Assembly: GCF_056746865.1 (NCBI RefSeq)
Contig: NZ_CM163382.1
Direction: 5' to 3' (one strand)
DNA length: 64,000 nucleotides
In this document: one piece after another, positions 1,030 to 21,871 of the stretch
Position numbering within the stretch: position 1 is the stretch's first letter
How the letters are laid out: every line of letters starts with the position of its first letter
The notes under the pieces: generated by a model
Databases searched by the model: none
What the model was told of the DNA's origin: nothing
Seen by the model: only the letters and a program-made list of their open reading frames with translations
Position numbers and translations under genes: made by a program

Positions 1030-2016
1030 ATGAACAACAGCGCTTTTACTTTCCAGACACTACACCCGGATACCATCATGGATGCTCTATTTGAGCAAGG
1101 GATCCGGGTGGATTCCGGTCTTACCCCGCTTAACAGCTATGAAAACCGTGTCTATCAATTTCAGGACGAAGATCGTCGACGTTTTGTCGTCAAATTTTAT
1201 CGCCCTGAACGTTGGACAGCCGATCAAATCCTCGAAGAACATCAATTTGCGTTGCAGCTGGTTAACGATGAAGTTCCGGTCGCAGCGCCTGTGGCCTTTA
1301 ACGGTCAGACTTTATTGAATCATCAGGGATTTTATTTCGCTGTTTTTCCAAGCGTCGGTGGTCGCCAGTTCGAAGCTGATAATATCGATCAGATGGAAGC
1401 GGTTGGGCGTTATTTAGGGCGTATGCATCAGACGGGGCGCAAACAGCTTTTTATCCATCGCCCGACCATCGGTCTGAATGAATATCTCATTGAGCCTCGC
1501 AAGCTGTTTGAGGACGCTACACTGATACCTTCCGGGTTGAAAGCGGCATTCCTGAAAGCGACAGATGAGCTGATCGCCGCCGTTACAGCACACTGGCGGG
1601 AAGATTTCACCGTTCTGCGGCTACATGGAGACTGCCACGCCGGTAATATCCTCTGGCGCGATGGTCCAATGTTTGTTGATCTGGATGATGCACGTAATGG
1701 TCCAGCCGTTCAGGATTTGTGGATGTTGCTCAATGGCGATAAAGCCGAGCAGCGGATGCAACTGGAAACTATTATTGAAGCTTATGAAGAATTTAGCGAG
1801 TTCGACACCGCTGAAATCGGACTGATTGAACCTTTACGCGCCATGCGTTTGGTTTATTATCTTGCCTGGCTGATGCGGCGTTGGGCTGATCCCGCGTTCC
1901 CGAAAAATTTCCCGTGGTTAACCGGGGAAGATTACTGGCTGCGACAGACGGCGACTTTTATAGAACAGGCAAAAGTTCTACAAGAACCCCCTTTGCAATT
2001 AACACCTATGTATTAA
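1030..2016 (+). CDS. srkA: Stress response Ser/Thr kinase SrkA (RdoA/YihE)
   Basis: 328 aa ORF, kinase-like fold residues (HGDCHAGN, DLDD); conserved position upstream of dsbA. Confidence 0.9.
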   Translation: MNNSAFTFQTLHPDTIMDALFEQGIRVDSGLTPLNSYENRVYQFQDEDRRRFVVKFYRPERWTADQILEEHQFALQLVNDEVPVAAPVAFNGQTLLNHQGFYFAVFPSVGGRQFEADNIDQMEAVGRYLGRMHQTGRKQLFIHRPTIGLNEYLIEPRKLFEDATLIPSGLKAAFLKATDELIAAVTAHWREDFTVLRLHGDCHAGNILWRDGPMFVDLDDARNGPAVQDLWMLLNGDKAEQRMQLETIIEAYEEFSEFDTAEIGLIEPLRAMRLVYYLAWLMRRWADPAFPKNFPWLTGEDYWLRQTATFIEQAKVLQEPPLQLTPMY

Positions 2017-2813: not shown

Positions 2814-4244
2814 ATGATACGTAAGTCAGCTACAGGTGTTATTGTTGCGTTAGCCGTAATCTGGGGTGGTGGCACATGGTACACAGGTACGCAAATTCAG
2901 CCTGGTGTCGAAAAGTTTATTAAAGATTTTAACGATGCTAAAAAGAAAGGTGAACATGCCTGCGATATGACGTTAAGTTATAAAAACTTTGACAAAGGCT
3001 TTTTTAATTCTCATTTTCAAATGCAAATAACATTTGATAACGGTGCACCCGATCTCAATATCAAGCCAGGCCAGAAAGTTGCATTTGATGTGGATGTTGA
3101 GCACGGTCCGTTGCCCATCACAATGTTAATGCGTGGTAATGTCATCCCCGCACTGGCAGCGGCAAAAGTGAACTTAGTGAATAATGAACTGACACAACCG
3201 CTATTTATCGCCGCGAAAAATAAATCGCCCGTGGAAGCGACATTGCGATTCGCGTTTGGTGGCTCATTCTCTACGACATTAGATGTTGCCCCTGCAGAGT
3301 ATGGAAAGTTTTCTTTTGGTGAGGGCCAGTTTACTTTTAATGGTGATGGTAGTTCATTGTCTAACCTGGATATTGAAGGCAAAGTCGAAGATATTGTTCT
3401 GCAATTATCACCAATGAACAAAGTAACGGCAAAAAGTTTTACCATTGATTCTCTGGCGCGATTAGAAGAAAAGAAATTTCCGGTTGGTGAAAGCGAGTCG
3501 AAATTTAATCAGATTAACATTATCAATCACGGGGAAGACGTTGCCCAAATCGATGCTTTCGTTGCAAAAACCAGGCTGGATCGCGTTAAAGACAAAGATT
3601 ATATCAATGTCAATCTGACCTACGAACTTGATAAGTTAACAAAAGGGAATCAGCAACTCGGTAGTGGTGAGTGGTCATTGATTGCTGAATCTATTGATCC
3701 CTCAGCAGTGCGCCAATTTATCATCCAGTATAACATTGCGATGCAGAAGCAGCTTGCTGCACACCCTGAGTTAGCAAACGATGAAGTTGCTCTGCAAGAA
3801 GTGAATGCTGCATTGTTCAAAGAGTATTTACCGTTATTACAAAAAAGTGAGCCGACCATTAAACAACCGGTAAGATGGAAGAATGCACTCGGCGAACTAA
3901 ATGCCAATCTGGATATCAGTATTGCCGACCCAGCCAAATCCTCATCATCCACAAACAAAGATATTAAATCGCTCAATTTTGATGTGAAGTTACCGCTTAA
4001 TGTCGTCACAGAAACCGCAAAACAGCTTAATTTATCTGAAGGAATGGATGCTGAAAAAGCGCAAAAGCGGGCTGATAAACAAATCAGCGGGATGATGACA
4101 TTAGGTCAGATGTTTCAGTTAATCACGATTGACAACAATACCGCCTCGCTGCAACTGCGTTATACACCGGGTAAAGTTGTTTTTAACGGACAGGAAATGA
4201 GCGAAGAAGAATTTATGTCTCGTGCCGGACGTTTTGTTCATTAA
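2814..4244 (+). CDS. yihF: DUF945 family protein YihF
   Basis: 476 aa from ATG at 2814 (MIRKSATGV...); track ORF begins at an upstream GTG. Confidence 0.85.
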   Translation: MIRKSATGVIVALAVIWGGGTWYTGTQIQPGVEKFIKDFNDAKKKGEHACDMTLSYKNFDKGFFNSHFQMQITFDNGAPDLNIKPGQKVAFDVDVEHGPLPITMLMRGNVIPALAAAKVNLVNNELTQPLFIAAKNKSPVEATLRFAFGGSFSTTLDVAPAEYGKFSFGEGQFTFNGDGSSLSNLDIEGKVEDIVLQLSPMNKVTAKSFTIDSLARLEEKKFPVGESESKFNQINIINHGEDVAQIDAFVAKTRLDRVKDKDYINVNLTYELDKLTKGNQQLGSGEWSLIAESIDPSAVRQFIIQYNIAMQKQLAAHPELANDEVALQEVNAALFKEYLPLLQKSEPTIKQPVRWKNALGELNANLDISIADPAKSSSSTNKDIKSLNFDVKLPLNVVTETAKQLNLSEGMDAEKAQKRADKQISGMMTLGQMFQLITIDNNTASLQLRYTPGKVVFNGQEMSEEEFMSRAGRFVH

Positions 4245-4248
4245 AATA

Positions 4249-4282
4249 CTCACTCGCCTCTGCTCATTCAGAGGCGAGTAAA
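4249..4282. terminator. Bidirectional hairpin terminator between convergent yihF and yihG
   Basis: Inverted repeat TACTCACTCGCCTCTG / CAGAGGCGAGTA between the two stop codons. Confidence 0.5.
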
Positions 4283-4284
4283 AC

Positions 4285-5217
4285 TTACTTATTCTGACGC
4301 TGTGATGACATCAACGACGTCAGAAGTCGGTCTTTTTCCTGCCACAGTGAGTTCAGCCATTGCTGAAAATGGCGCTTAAAGCTTTTGTCATTGATGTAGT
4401 CGCCATGTAACTCATCGGCAATAGGCTGTAAATCCACATGTACGACAATTCGCGTCAGTTTACCGCTTAACATATCGAAGAACGGCTGACGGTTATTGTC
4501 CGGATAACATAGCGTAACATTAAGCAGTTTATCGAATTGTTTACCCAGTACATTTAGCGCCATCGCAATGCCTGCCGCCTTTGGTGGCAACAAGTTTTGA
4601 AAAGTGGAGTGCGTTTGCTGATGTTTTTCTTGCGTGAAACGGGAGCCTTCAACGAAATTAACAATGGTGGTGGGATGCAGGCGAAACTTTTCACAAGAAC
4701 GCCGAGTAGTTTCAACATCTTTACCACGTCTCTCCGGATGACGTAATAAATAAGCGCGGGAATAACGCTTCATAAACGGCATATCCAGCGCCCAGCATGC
4801 CAGGCCAAGAAAAGGCACCCAGGCCAGCTGCTGCTTGAGGAAATATTTATTCATCGGAATGTGCTTACGAAACAGCACGCACAGTACGACAATATCTGCC
4901 CAACTACGGTGGTTACAAATAAGCAGATACCAGTTTTTCTTACTTAACCCTTCCAGCCCGTGAACTTCCCATTGCAGGTGTGGGTTCAAATGCAGTAATA
5001 CCGCCAGACCTTCACACCAGCAATACATCATAAAATCACAAAAACGCGAAACCTTTCGCCAAATGACTGGCACAGGAAGCAATAGTTTTACAATCCCGGC
5101 AATGATGATCGGGACGGAGCAAAAAATAGTGACCAAAATGGTCAATACGATACTCAGCAAAAGGGTTATCGCAGCGAGTATTCTCGTCATAATGAATTTA
5201 TTCAAAAAGTTAGCCAT
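4285..5217 (-). CDS. yihG: PlsC-family acyltransferase YihG
   Basis: 310 aa from the internal Met (MANFLNKF...), HRSWADI acyltransferase motif. Confidence 0.85.
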
Positions 5218-5448
5218 AGACAGTGCGCTAAAGAAGCGCAAGGCGCAGATTTTAGCAGAAAACGACCCAAATAACGGATGATCCTTAAGGAGAAAAATAA
5301 TTCATATCTATCCACATTAGAAAAAATCCCATCATCTCAATTATTAGGGATGGTCTTATTTTTAACTTCATGAAAAACAAAGACAAACATCATGCTGTAA
5401 AAAGCATGATAATAAATTAAAAGCGATGTAAATAATTTATGCACAAAG

Positions 5449-8367: not shown

Positions 8368-8514
8368 GATTCGCCTGAACATGCCCTTTTTTCGTAAGTA
8401 AGCAACATAAGCTGTCACGTTTTGTGATGGCTATTAGAAATTCCTATGCAACAACTGAAAAAAAATTACAAAAAGTGCTTTCTGAACTGAACAAAAAAGA
8501 GTAAAGTTAGTCGC

Positions 8515-8623
8515 GTAGGGTACAGAGGTAAGATGTTCTATCTTTCAGACCTTTTACTTCACGTAATCGGATTTGGCTGAATATTTTAGCCGCCCCAGTC
8601 AGTAATGACTGGGGCGTTTTTTA
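8515..8623 (+). ncRNA. spf: Spot 42 small RNA
   Basis: Sequence GTAGGGTACAGAGGTAAGATGTTCTATC...GCCGCCCCAGTCAGTAATGACTGGGGCGTTTTTTA matches Spot 42, ends in an intrinsic terminator; immediately downstream of polA. Confidence 0.85.
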
Positions 8624-9651: not shown

Positions 9652-9897
9652 ATAGAGCGAGGACGCTAACAGGAACAATGACTCAGGATGAGGGTCAGGA
9701 GCGCCAGGAGGCGAAGACAGAGGATTGTCAGGAAGACAAACGTCCGGAGACGTAATTAAACGGAAATGGAATCAACACGGATTGTTCCGGCTAATGGAAA
9801 AACAGGGTGTGTTGGCGGCCTGCAAGGATTGTAAGACCCGTTAAGGGTTATGAGTCAGGAAAAAAGGCGACAGAGTAATCTGTCGCCTTTTTTCTTT
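9652..9897 (+). ncRNA. csrC: CsrC, CsrA-sequestering small RNA
   Basis: About 245 nt with many GGA motifs in AGGA/CAGGA contexts, ending in hairpin AAGGCGACAGAGTAATCTGTCGCCTTTTTT; between engB and yihI. Ends are approximate. Confidence 0.75.
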
Positions 9898-9962
9898 GCT
9901 TGCTTTCTGTTAGATTCCGCCGCAAATCTATACTGAATAAAACGGCTAAAAGACGAACCATT

Positions 9963-10660: not shown

Positions 10661-12034
10661 ATGTCTGTACAGCAAATCGACTGGGATCTGGCCCTGATCC
10701 AGAAATATAACTATTCCGGGCCACGATACACCTCGTACCCGACCGCGCTGGAGTTTTCAGAAGACTTCGGCGAACAGGCGTTTTTACAAGCCGTGGCGCG
10801 CTATCCTGAGCGTCCATTATCTCTCTACGTACATATTCCGTTCTGCCATAAGCTTTGTTACTTCTGCGGTTGCAATAAGATTGTTACTCGCCAGCAGCAC
10901 AAGGCCGATCAGTATCTGGACGCGCTGGAGCAAGAAATCGTCCATCGTGCACCGCTGTTCGCCGGGCGTCACGTCAGCCAATTGCACTGGGGCGGTGGTA
11001 CGCCGACGTATCTGAACAAAGCGCAAATCAGCCGTCTGATGAAGCTGCTGCGCGAAAACTTCCAGTTCAATGCCGATGCGGAGATTTCGATCGAAGTCGA
11101 TCCGCGTGAAATCGAACTGGATGTACTCGATCATTTACGCGCCGAGGGCTTTAATCGCCTGAGCATGGGCGTGCAGGACTTCAACAAAGAAGTGCAACGT
11201 CTGGTTAACCGCGAGCAGGATGAAGAGTTCATCTTTGCACTGCTTAACCATGCGCGTGAGATTGGTTTTACCTCCACCAACATCGACCTGATTTACGGCC
11301 TGCCGAAACAGACGCCGGAGAGTTTCGCCTTTACCCTGAAACGCGTGGCGGAGCTGAACCCCGATCGTCTGAGTGTCTTCAACTACGCGCATCTGCCGAC
11401 CATTTTTGCTGCTCAGCGCAAAATCAAAGATGCTGACTTGCCGAGTCCGCAGCAAAAACTCGATATCCTGCAGGAAACCATCGCCTTCCTGACGCAATCG
11501 GGCTATCAGTTTATCGGTATGGATCACTTTGCTCGCCCGGATGACGAGCTGGCGGTGGCCCAGCGTGAAGGCGTGCTGCATCGTAACTTCCAGGGCTACA
11601 CCACTCAGGGCGATACCGATCTGCTGGGGATGGGCGTTTCCGCCATCAGCATGATTGGCGACTGCTACGCGCAGAACCAGAAAGAGTTGAAGCAGTACTA
11701 TCAGCAAGTGGATGAACAAGGCAATGCGCTGTGGCGTGGTATTGCGCTAACGCGTGATGACTGTATTCGCCGCGATGTGATTAAGTCGCTCATCTGCAAC
11801 TTCCGTCTGGATTTCGCCCCCATTGAGCAACAGTGGGATTTGCACTTCCCTGATTACTTTGCCGAAGATCTCAAGCTGCTCGCCCCGTTAGCAAAAGATG
11901 GGCTGGTGGATGTGGATGAGAAGGGGATTCAGGTGACGGCGAAAGGTCGCCTGCTTATCCGCAACATTTGCATGTGCTTTGATACCTATCTGCGCCAGAA
12001 AGCGCGGATGCAGCAGTTCTCTCGGGTGATTTAA
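10661..12034 (+). CDS. hemN: Oxygen-independent coproporphyrinogen III oxidase (radical SAM)
   Basis: 457 aa from ATG at 10661 with GGAG RBS; CHKLCYFCGC radical-SAM cysteine motif. Confidence 0.92.
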   Translation: MSVQQIDWDLALIQKYNYSGPRYTSYPTALEFSEDFGEQAFLQAVARYPERPLSLYVHIPFCHKLCYFCGCNKIVTRQQHKADQYLDALEQEIVHRAPLFAGRHVSQLHWGGGTPTYLNKAQISRLMKLLRENFQFNADAEISIEVDPREIELDVLDHLRAEGFNRLSMGVQDFNKEVQRLVNREQDEEFIFALLNHAREIGFTSTNIDLIYGLPKQTPESFAFTLKRVAELNPDRLSVFNYAHLPTIFAAQRKIKDADLPSPQQKLDILQETIAFLTQSGYQFIGMDHFARPDDELAVAQREGVLHRNFQGYTTQGDTDLLGMGVSAISMIGDCYAQNQKELKQYYQQVDEQGNALWRGIALTRDDCIRRDVIKSLICNFRLDFAPIEQQWDLHFPDYFAEDLKLLAPLAKDGLVDVDEKGIQVTAKGRLLIRNICMCFDTYLRQKARMQQFSRVI

Positions 12035-12100
12035 ATAGTGAATGGCGCTTCGTTTACAAAGTAGAAAACGAAAGCGCCATCAATGTGCTGAGAACAAGAT

Positions 12101-12192
12101 TGCCTGATGCGCTACGCTTATCAGGCCTACAAAACCTGTTGAAAATATTGCTTTTGTAGGCCGGATAAGGCGTTCACGCCGCATCCGGCATG
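12101..12192. repeat. REP/BIME palindromic elements
   Basis: TGCCTGATGCGCTACGCTTATCAGGCC and GTAGGCCGGATAAGGCGTTCACGCCGCATCCGGCA units. Confidence 0.6.
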
Positions 12193-12223
12193 AACAAAGA
12201 GCACTTCATCAGCAATCTGAAAC

Positions 12224-12334
12224 TCAACTAAACAGCCCAATCATTGCGGCACACAGCACGGCAGCAACGGCAGTTTGCGGTGTGTGGCTGTCAACTGCGC
12301 CACTCGATACCAGATTAATTATTGATTCCAGCAT
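12224..12334 (-). CDS. yshB: Small hydrophobic protein (36 aa), YshB-like
   Basis: Hand-translated minus-strand ORF MLESIINLVSSGAVDSHTPQTAVAAVLCAAMIGLFS, below the track length cutoff; gene name from memory of the K-12 hemN-glnG interval. Confidence 0.5.
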   Translation of the reverse strand: MLESIINLVSSGAVDSHTPQTAVAAVLCAAMIGLFS

Positions 12335-12445
12335 AACGACTCTCCCCGTTTTCCGGGCAAGATCATACTGAACTTATCGGAACAGTAAAGCGCAAAATAC
12401 CAGCAATTTGCGCTCAATAATCAATCTTTACACACAAGCCGTGAA

Positions 12446-13855
12446 TCACTCCATCCCCAGCTCTTTTAACTTACGCGTCAGAGTGTTGCGGCCCCAGCCG
12501 AGTAGCCGCGCCGCTTCCTGTTTATGCCCCTGCGTATGTCGCAATGCGGTTGTCAGTAAAGTCCGCTCCAGCTCAGGCTGCGCTTCGGAAAGCAGATTTT
12601 GATGACCGGAACGCAGCGCCCTGTCTGCCCACTGCGCTAACAGCGTCGCCCAACTGTCCGGTTGCATATGCGAAGTACTCTCCGCAACCGTTGACTCAAA
12701 CAGTTCGCTGGGCAAATCCTGAATCAACACTTCCTGTCCGGCAGCCATCACCGTTAGCCAGCGACAGGTGTTTTCCAGCTGGCGTACGTTACCCGGCCAT
12801 GCCAGACGCGTCAGCGCGGCTTCGGTTTCCGGATGCAGCAACTTCGCTTCTACGCCCAGCTCGCGCGCGGCAACCTGTAAAAAATGACGTGCCAGACGGG
12901 GAATATCTTCCCGACGCTCACGCAGTGGCGGCAGATGAACGCGGATGACGTTCAGGCGGTGGAACAGATCCTCACGGAACTTACCTTCCTGCACCCGCTG
13001 TTCAAGATTCTGGTGAGTGGCAGCGATAATCCGCACATCCACTTTCACCGGCGCATAGCCGCCAACGCGATAAAACTGACCGTCTGCCAGCACGCGCAGC
13101 AAACGCGTCTGCACATCCAGCGGCATATCACCAATTTCGTCGAGAAATAACGTGCCGCCATCGGCCTGTTCAAAACGCCCCTGACGAATGGTGTTCGCGC
13201 CAGTAAACGCGCCTTTCTCGTGACCAAACAGTTCTGATTCGATCAAATCCTTCGGGATAGCCGCCATATTCAGCGCGATAAATGGCGCTTTGGCTCGCGG
13301 ACTGTGGCGATGCAGGGCATGAGCGACCAGTTCTTTACCGGTGCCGGATTCGCCGTTAATCAGCACGCTAATAGAAGAACGCGAAAGCCGACCGATAATA
13401 CGGAACACGTCCTGCATGGCTGGCGCTTCGCCGATGATATCGGTCGTTGGGCCGTTAAGCTGAACATTACGCGGCTGCTGCTGTTCCTGGTAATGACTGA
13501 TGGCGCGCTCAACCAGCGCGACGGCTTCGTCGATATCAAACGGTTTGGGCAGATAATCAAACGCCCCTTGTTGATAGGCGCTGACGGCAGCATCCAGATC
13601 GGAATGTGCGGTCATAATGATGACCGGAAGCATCGGATGGCGCTGTTTAATCTGCTTGAGCAGCGCCAGCCCGTCCATTCCCGGCATACGGATATCTGAA
13701 AGCAGCACATCCGGCGTTTTGCTCGCCAGCGCCTCCAGTACCTCCGCGCCGTTCTCAAATGTCGTACAGGTTAAACCCGCTCCAGCGAGCGCACGTTCAA
13801 GCACCCAACGGATGGAACTATCGTCATCGACTACCCAGACTATCCCTCGTTGCAT
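12446..13855 (-). CDS. glnG: Nitrogen regulation protein NR(I), sigma54-dependent response regulator NtrC
   Basis: 469 aa from [12 protein letters not shown]; receiver domain, AAA+ sigma54 activator domain (GESGTGKE), HTH. Confidence 0.92.
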
Positions 13856-13866
13856 AAACGTCACCT

Positions 13867-14916
13867 TTATTTCCTGATAGGCAGGTAAACCGAGAACTCG
13901 GTATGACCTGGCCAACTGGTAAATTCAATTTTGCCTGAATGCTGATCAATCAAATTACGGGCGATGGATAAGCCAAGCCCGGTGCCACCTTCGCGGCCGC
14001 TGACCATCGGGTAAAACAGCGTATCCTGCAAATGAGGCGGAATACCTGGCCCGTTATCTTCCACATCAATTCGCGCCGCCAGCCGATAACGCTCGCCGTG
14101 TAAGGTCAGTTGGAAAGCTGTGCGGGTACGCAGAATGATTTCACCACCCTCTGGCCCCAGCGCCTGTAGCGCATTGCGCACAATATTCAGGAGCACTTGC
14201 TCAATTTGATCCGGGTCGTGCGCCAGTTCCGGCAGGCTGGGGTCGTAATCACGAATCAACCGCACGTTGTCCGGCAGTTCCATCGACACCAGCGTCACCA
14301 CGCGTTCAGCCACTTTATGAATACTTTCGGTAACGCGCGTACCGGGCAGTTGCGGTCCCAACAGACGGTCGACCAGATTTCGCAGCCGGTCCGCCTGTTC
14401 GATAATAACTTTGGTATATTCGAGTAGTGACGGGTCAGGTAATGCTTTGCTGAGCAGCTGCGCCGCGCCACGTAAACCGCCAAGCGGATTTTTAATCTCA
14501 TGTGCCAGGCCGCGCACTAAATCACGGGCAGCAACCTGCTGGGCGTGCTGTAGCTGTTCCTGACTTAAGCGGCGCTGGTTATCCATCGGTGCCATCTCCA
14601 GCAGGATCATGCCGTCCGGCATACGCTGGGCCGTCACAGAAAGGATATGCGAGCGCCCGTCGATGACCAGCGTCACTTCGTTATCGGTAAAACCTTGCCC
14701 CGCCTCCAGACTTTCTTGCATCAGCTCGATATTTAATGAGAAGTAGCTCAACAGTTCCGGTAACGGTGTACCAAACAATTTGCGGGAGCTTTGGGCGAGC
14801 AGTTGTTGCGCGGCGGGGTTGGCGTAATGGATCGCCAGGTTGTCATCGATTAACAAAATACTGTTAATCAGCGAGTTGAGGATCTGCCCAGCATCGGGCT
14901 GCGTGCCTGTTGCCAT
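13867..14916 (-). CDS. glnL: Nitrogen sensor histidine kinase NR(II), NtrB
   Basis: 349 aa, H-box HEIKNPL, ATPase domain. Confidence 0.92.
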
Positions 14917-16639: not shown

Positions 16640-16720
16640 CGTGCAAAAGGGCTGCACCATGATATGAATGTTGCACCAATATAGTGCTTCAATGGAAACA
16701 TTAAGCACCATATTGGTGCA
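16640..16720. promoter_or_regulatory. NtrC binding sites upstream of glnA
   Basis: Palindrome GCACCATATTGGTGC at 16705-16719 plus additional TGCACCA half-site repeats. Confidence 0.6.
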
Positions 16721-16871
16721 ATGACCTTTGGATAACCCTTTTTATGCTCCGTGAAAGCGATCACAAAGGGACTCTGCAATACTTGTTTGCGGAGGATGTT
16801 TGTGATCCTGTTTTGTAGTGCGATTAATCCGTGTACAATAACGCGCTATTTCTAATGCCTGAGGCAAAGTT

Positions 16872-19629: not shown

Positions 19630-21871
<2,242 letters not shown>

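Follow-up and report, generated by a model that had tools for sequence, protein, structure and literature searches.

Between hemN, whose stop codon lies at position 12034 on the plus strand, and glnG, which ends at position 12446 on the minus strand, the window (the whole stretch of 64,000 nucleotides that was analysed, from contig NZ_CM163382.1 of assembly GCF_056746865.1) contains a minus-strand open reading frame of 36 codons with an ATG start and a TAA stop. Its translation, MLESIINLVSSGAVDSHTPQTAVAAVLCAAMIGLFS, agrees with that of the first-pass annotation, in which the frame had been noticed from the letters alone and tentatively named as yshB of this locus. The frame had been left out of the accompanying ORF list because it is shorter than the typical cut-off of 60 amino acids, as had been supposed at the time. 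The features of the interval are collected in Table 1.

Table 1. Positions (window coordinates) and evidence for features in the hemN-glnG interval.
Feature	Coordinates	Strand	Evidence
yshB CDS	12224..12334	-	translation; RefSeq CDS WP_000893994.1; NF033841 match; dN/dS
Shine-Dalgarno sequence GGGGAGAG	12340..12347	-	read from the sequence; GGAG core ends 7 nt 5' of the ATG
yshB sigma-70-type promoter	12362..12389	-	consensus scan; -35 TTTACT (12389-12384), 16-nt spacer, -10 TATGAT (12367-12362)
Hairpin AGCGCAAA/TTTGCGCT after the glnG stop	12389..12414	-	inverted repeat and predicted fold; 3' arm abuts the yshB -35
Stable hairpin between convergent yshB and hemN	12042..12080	.	perfect 9-bp inverted repeat; -20.5 kcal/mol, z = -6.3
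REP/BIME pair 3' of yshB, outside the gene	12117..12189 (approx.)	.	two inverted repeats; sub-threshold match to REP-derived naRNA4

The tentative name proved to be the right one. The RefSeq/PGAP annotation has yshB, "YshB family small membrane protein" (WP_000893994.1), at identical coordinates and on the same strand, and in NZ_CP032515.1 the yshB CDS occupies locus positions 1725-1835 (minus), which correspond to 12224-12334 of the window. Against the NCBIfam equivalog model NF033841 (small_YshB), for which the curated cut-off is 34 bits, the peptide scores 72.1 bits (E = 2.4e-20; residues 1-36 against profile positions 1-40 of 40). An exact-sequence look-up returned the UniProt entry YSHB_ECOLI and the cluster name "YshB family small membrane protein". 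Identical to the peptide of the window, too, is the protein listed as YshB in PMC10470546 (Table S1). The Pfam family PF28018 (YshB) is listed for every retrieved ortholog in the precomputed annotations of the contig collection; a copy of Pfam-A that did not include PF28018 gave no match when searched with the peptide. HMM score, sequence identity, genomic position and coding constraint all place the protein in the YshB family (NF033841/PF28018). It shares its amino acid sequence, length, strand, position between glnG and hemN, and annotation with YshB of E. coli K-12 (YSHB_ECOLI), and there is no difference at the protein level. Over the 181 nt that comprise promoter and ORF, the DNA of the window matches several strains of clinical or environmental origin at 100% identity, and the laboratory strain NEBExpress_Iq at 99.4%. 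The gene, first reported by Hemm et al. 2008 as cited in PMC10470546 and PMC9731577, is thus a previously annotated and partly characterised one.

The ORF is preceded by a Shine-Dalgarno sequence, the GGG core of which is invariant in all 11 lineages aligned, and by a promoter that is the only sigma-70-type site found by consensus scan in the interval. In the same 11-lineage alignment, the elements CTTTAC and GTATnAT are invariant and at fixed spacing throughout the Enterobacteriaceae and Erwiniaceae. Possession of its own promoter by yshB has also been reported (PMC9731577). In ten of the lineages a spacer of 110-112 nt separates the yshB ATG from the glnG stop; the remaining one, Erwinia tracheiphila, has 100 nt. 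Within this spacer, the hairpin that follows the glnG stop is a candidate terminator of glnALG on the strength of its predicted fold. The terminator scan made no call at this hairpin because its loop is 10 nt long. The hairpin ends exactly at the start of the -35 hexamer, so that the possible glnALG terminator and the yshB promoter share sequence. The glnG open frame itself (12446-13915, minus strand) would specify 489 amino acids from an upstream TTG, while RefSeq gives 469 amino acids from the ATG at 13855.

On the other side of yshB, the hairpin located between the two convergent genes may constitute a 3'-end or terminator structure shared by yshB and hemN. The interval had also been described in the first-pass annotation as REP-containing, and it does hold a REP/BIME pair, which lies wholly outside the ORF and which, among the loci compared, is present in those of Escherichia only. 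Across loci, the stop codons of yshB and hemN lie between 35 and 189 nt apart; E. coli has 189 nt and E. marmotae 155 nt, as against 35-100 nt in Salmonella, Citrobacter, Leclercia, Enterobacter, Klebsiella and two of the Erwiniaceae loci. In Erwinia tracheiphila, a gene for an SBP_bac_5 solute-binding protein (locus positions ~3795-5423) is inserted between yshB and hemN. Elsewhere in the window, Rfam matches at gathering level were obtained at 8505-8623, 9652-9905, 16683-16790, 21054-21176, 46767-46825 and 61020-61097; these comprise Spot 42, CsrC, ES222, isrC, a SECIS element and naRNA4, all of them known features of this region of the E. coli chromosome.

The distribution of the gene was investigated with two nucleotide queries. 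A 461-nt query spanning the interval found matches in 5,425 of 5,426 complete E. coli genomes, the feature underneath being annotated yshB. The 181-nt query limited to promoter and ORF found one place per genome, again in 5,425 of the 5,426 and always at an identity of at least 95%, and yshB was the annotation in each of 25 rows sampled evenly along its ranking. The median number of matches per genome was 39 with the longer query and 1 with the yshB-only query, since the former includes the REP/BIME pair. At the protein level, a HMMER scan of 1.84 billion representatives yielded 15 matches at E <= 0.001, 14 of them to peptides of no more than 91 amino acids. By the names of their sources, members of the YshB family occur in Escherichia, Shigella, Salmonella, Citrobacter, Leclercia, Enterobacter, Klebsiella and the Erwiniaceae.

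At every retrieved locus, from Escherichia to the Erwiniaceae, the gene order is glnA-glnL-glnG-yshB with hemN convergent. For ten of the 11 ortholog loci, retrieval went by way of called genes, and intactness of the frame was therefore partly selected for; free of this bias are the dN/dS values and codon-position pattern given below, the E. coli census, and the locus of Citrobacter werkmanii. The last, retrieved through glnG rather than yshB, has an 86%-identical ORF directly after glnG, and is the sole Enterobacteriaceae locus among the matches listed in the glnG-seeded contig scan. Among these same matches, nothing similar lies 3' of glnG in Photorhabdus, Vibrio, Shewanella, Pseudomonas or more distant taxa. 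Genes for NtrC of the proteobacterial type were also encountered on contigs labelled as metagenome-assembled genomes of Alistipes senegalensis and of a Halobacteriales archaeon, which looks like binning contamination.

YshB of Salmonella enterica shows 92% identity to that of E. coli (33 of 36 residues; V23L, M31L and I32V), with the same synteny, promoter and Shine-Dalgarno sequence. In Erwinia tracheiphila the protein has 37 residues as the result of a one-residue insertion, and a C-terminal His replaces Ser. Three rare frameshifted variants of E. coli yshB are present in the databases, one of which fuses the first 24 residues of YshB to a 37-amino-acid ORF (12127-12240, minus strand) that runs into the REP element; these variants are probably sequencing errors or rare mutants.

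Length by itself does not distinguish yshB from its surroundings. Within 5 kb there are 77 ORFs of at least 20 amino acids, many of them of 30-40, and the length of yshB is unremarkable among these, so that the reality of the ORF rests on conservation and annotation. As a check, the first-pass annotation had proposed a comparison of synonymous with nonsynonymous change across relatives, with a frame not conserved among relatives as the outcome that would speak against a gene. The frame is kept. It is free of stops in all 11 lineages, and the variable columns of the codon alignment are distributed 24/10/32 over first, second and third codon positions. Between E. coli and Salmonella, pS is 0.63 and pN 0.04 (dN/dS 0.03), and over all E. 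coli pairs with a computable dS the dN/dS ratio lies between 0.03 and 0.25. The other frames give pN/pS ratios of 1.4-3.6, with the exception of one antisense frame at 0.34. The codons of yshB are under strong purifying selection.

These figures bear on two other explanations of the ORF. One holds that it arose by chance in non-coding DNA 3' of glnG, be it 3' UTR or REP region, and is not translated to any function; the local frequency of frames of 30-40 codons and the repetitive REP DNA that yshB adjoins are what could be expected in that case. Against it stand the three-base periodicity and low dN/dS at synonymous sites near saturation, the retention of start, stop, Shine-Dalgarno sequence and promoter as far as the Erwiniaceae, the existence of a curated equivalog HMM, the fact that the gene is single-copy with no overlap with the REPs, and the detection of native YshB by top-down mass spectrometry (PMC12529367). 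The codon-level constraint effectively refutes a chance origin, to which we assign next to no probability.

The other explanation places the true gene on the plus strand, as a 29-amino-acid ORF beginning with GTG at 12282-12371. The antisense frame is indeed stop-free over the yshB interval in seven of the 11 lineages, and it is the frame with the low pN/pS ratio; such a ratio is, however, to be expected of an antisense frame that shares its wobble positions with the sense frame, and neither annotation nor a Shine-Dalgarno sequence nor a promoter supports a gene in this orientation. Stops in the divergent orthologs, namely those of Klebsiella and of all three Erwiniaceae loci, refute it, and its likelihood is negligible. 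The low antisense ratio mirrors the codon structure of the sense strand and is not the mark of a second gene. We conclude, with a probability of roughly 0.97, that 12224-12334 is yshB, a genuine and independently transcribed gene for a small protein of 36 residues, probably of the inner membrane.

The protein has a mass of 3.6 kDa, is acidic (pI 4.35) and hydrophobic (GRAVY 1.12), and contains no lysyl or arginyl residues, in agreement with the statement in a proteomics paper that YshB lacks tryptic sites (PMC12529367). Ten residues are invariant in 16 orthologs: M1, E3, H17, P19, Q20, T21, A22, C28, A29 and F35. AlphaFold2, run on the ortholog alignment, predicted one helix at residues 2-13 and another at 17-34, interrupted at 14-16; confidence in the model is moderate (pLDDT 72.8). 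In this model the invariant motif H17-x-P19-Q20-T21-A22 leads into the C-terminal hydrophobic helix (~17-34), which carries the invariant C28-A29 and F35. The hydrophobic core spans residues 21-35 (mean KD 2.37), and the best 19-residue window reaches only 1.53. The look of a protein with a single transmembrane segment, remarked upon in the first-pass annotation, is therefore reasonable but marginal, the hydrophobic stretch being some 16-18 residues long and situated at the extreme C-terminus, and the segment being called by TOPCONS only, in a predicted N-out/C-in orientation, in a table that lists no experimental topology for YshB (PMC10470546, Table S1).

Insertion of tagged YshB into the membrane receives support from proteolysis. 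Overproduced RseP, the site-2 intramembrane protease, cleaved 12 of 37 small membrane proteins, YshB included, and YshB was one of the six class I substrates, which gave a positive result in each of four assays: with RseP from the chromosome, with RseP from a plasmid, with a 3xFLAG-tagged form, and in vitro with the purified enzyme (PMC10470546). Cleavage by RseP takes place within the membrane and so speaks for insertion of the tagged protein, all of the cleavage having been seen with N-terminally tagged constructs; YshB was also cut by proteases other than RseP (PMC10470546). The predicted N-out/C-in orientation is opposite to the type II (N-in/C-out) arrangement expected of RseP substrates, yet tagged YshB belongs to class I. 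In view of this conflict, the topology of native YshB may be dual.

Type I toxins are characterised by a cis-encoded antisense RNA, by loci that are often multi-copy or variably present, and by a basic, hydrophobic toxic peptide. YshB could be taken for a membrane-damaging peptide of this sort (compare Hok, Ldr, Ibs, TisB and ShoB), since it is small and hydrophobic with a single helix, and it falls into the same class of RseP substrates, class I, as HokB and HokE (PMC10470546). It lacks, however, the basic residues typical of these toxins and is encoded by a single-copy core gene; a strong Shine-Dalgarno sequence and a promoter of its own take the place of translational occlusion, and the protein is reported to be highly abundant in normal growth (PMC7549839). 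No conserved antisense ORF is present at yshB, Rfam searched on both strands over the ORF gave no known antitoxin RNA family, and PADLOC was without match. Toxicity set aside, the genomic and sequence hallmarks of type I toxins that were looked for (antisense RNA family, multi-copy locus, Lys and Arg residues) are not those of yshB. Its identity as such a toxin is rejected on the basis of its abundance, its single-copy core status, the lack of basic residues and that of an antisense RNA family, and we consider it extremely unlikely.

Selection might instead act on an RNA to which the peptide would be secondary, be it a small regulatory RNA or a transcript with two functions. The transcript is short, with its own promoter and stable terminal hairpins, and Bomjan 2019 reportedly found YshB in a screen of candidate small RNAs, which counts in favour of this reading. 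So does the location of the sRNA NrsZ of P. aeruginosa at the equivalent position 3' of ntrBC (PMC9731577). Selection on RNA is nevertheless difficult to reconcile with a substitution pattern of the protein type, in which third positions vary while amino acids are conserved, or with the clustering of the invariant residues as a peptide motif, and no Rfam family was found over the ORF at E-values up to 1. That an RNA is the selected product is very improbable; an additional RNA role of yshB is possible and is not needed to explain the data.

For YshB, the surveyed literature also provides an estimate of abundance, a negative detection and a phenotype. More than 11,000 copies per cell have been predicted from the ribosome profiling data of Li et al. 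2014, as cited in PMC7549839 and PMC10502375, and in one study plasmid-borne, C-terminally His-tagged YshB was not detectable (PMC7549839). The Salmonella homolog promotes intracellular replication and virulence, according to the citations in PMC10470546 and PMC9731577 of Bomjan, Zhang and Zhou 2019 (J Bacteriol 201:e00314-19); in these sources the phenotype comes from Salmonella only. No phenotype of E. coli yshB was found reported in the surveyed literature, in which the 2019 study is represented by the papers citing it.

A mechanism is suggested by likening YshB to MgrB, which acts on PhoQ, MgtS (MgtA/PitA), AcrZ (AcrB) and CydX (cytochrome bd). By this analogy YshB most likely inserts its C-terminal helix into the inner membrane and, through the invariant motif, most likely binds and modulates a larger membrane protein, while RseP and other proteases would set its level. 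Like YshB, all four are single-helix peptides of fewer than 50 amino acids that were discovered by the same comparative-genomics route, and MgrB and CydX were screened beside YshB as RseP substrates (PMC10470546). They show no sequence similarity to YshB. YshB further differs from them in lacking basic residues that would fix its orientation, and in the placement of its hydrophobic helix at the extreme C-terminus. The shortness of this helix, the predicted N-out/C-in orientation as against type II, and the derivation of the cleavage results from tagged constructs were counted against the mechanism.

The nearly constant spacer of 110-112 nt between glnG and yshB and the hairpin abutting the -35 hexamer gave rise to a more specific proposal, namely that the rigid linkage of yshB to glnALG reflects functional coupling. 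YshB, through its invariant H-x-P-Q-T-A...C-A motif, would then modulate some membrane component by which nitrogen or ammonium is handled, or the expression of yshB would be tuned by transcription reading through from glnALG. This is unlikely in our estimation. Nitrogen limitation, according to one paper, does not induce yshB (PMC9731577).

For the scanning of genomes, the present case is a positive control and not a discovery. It indicates that the reading of raw sequence can recover a genuine small-protein gene below the cut-off for ORF length, and that codon-level conservation validates such a gene fast. YshB itself is one among many abundant small membrane proteins.
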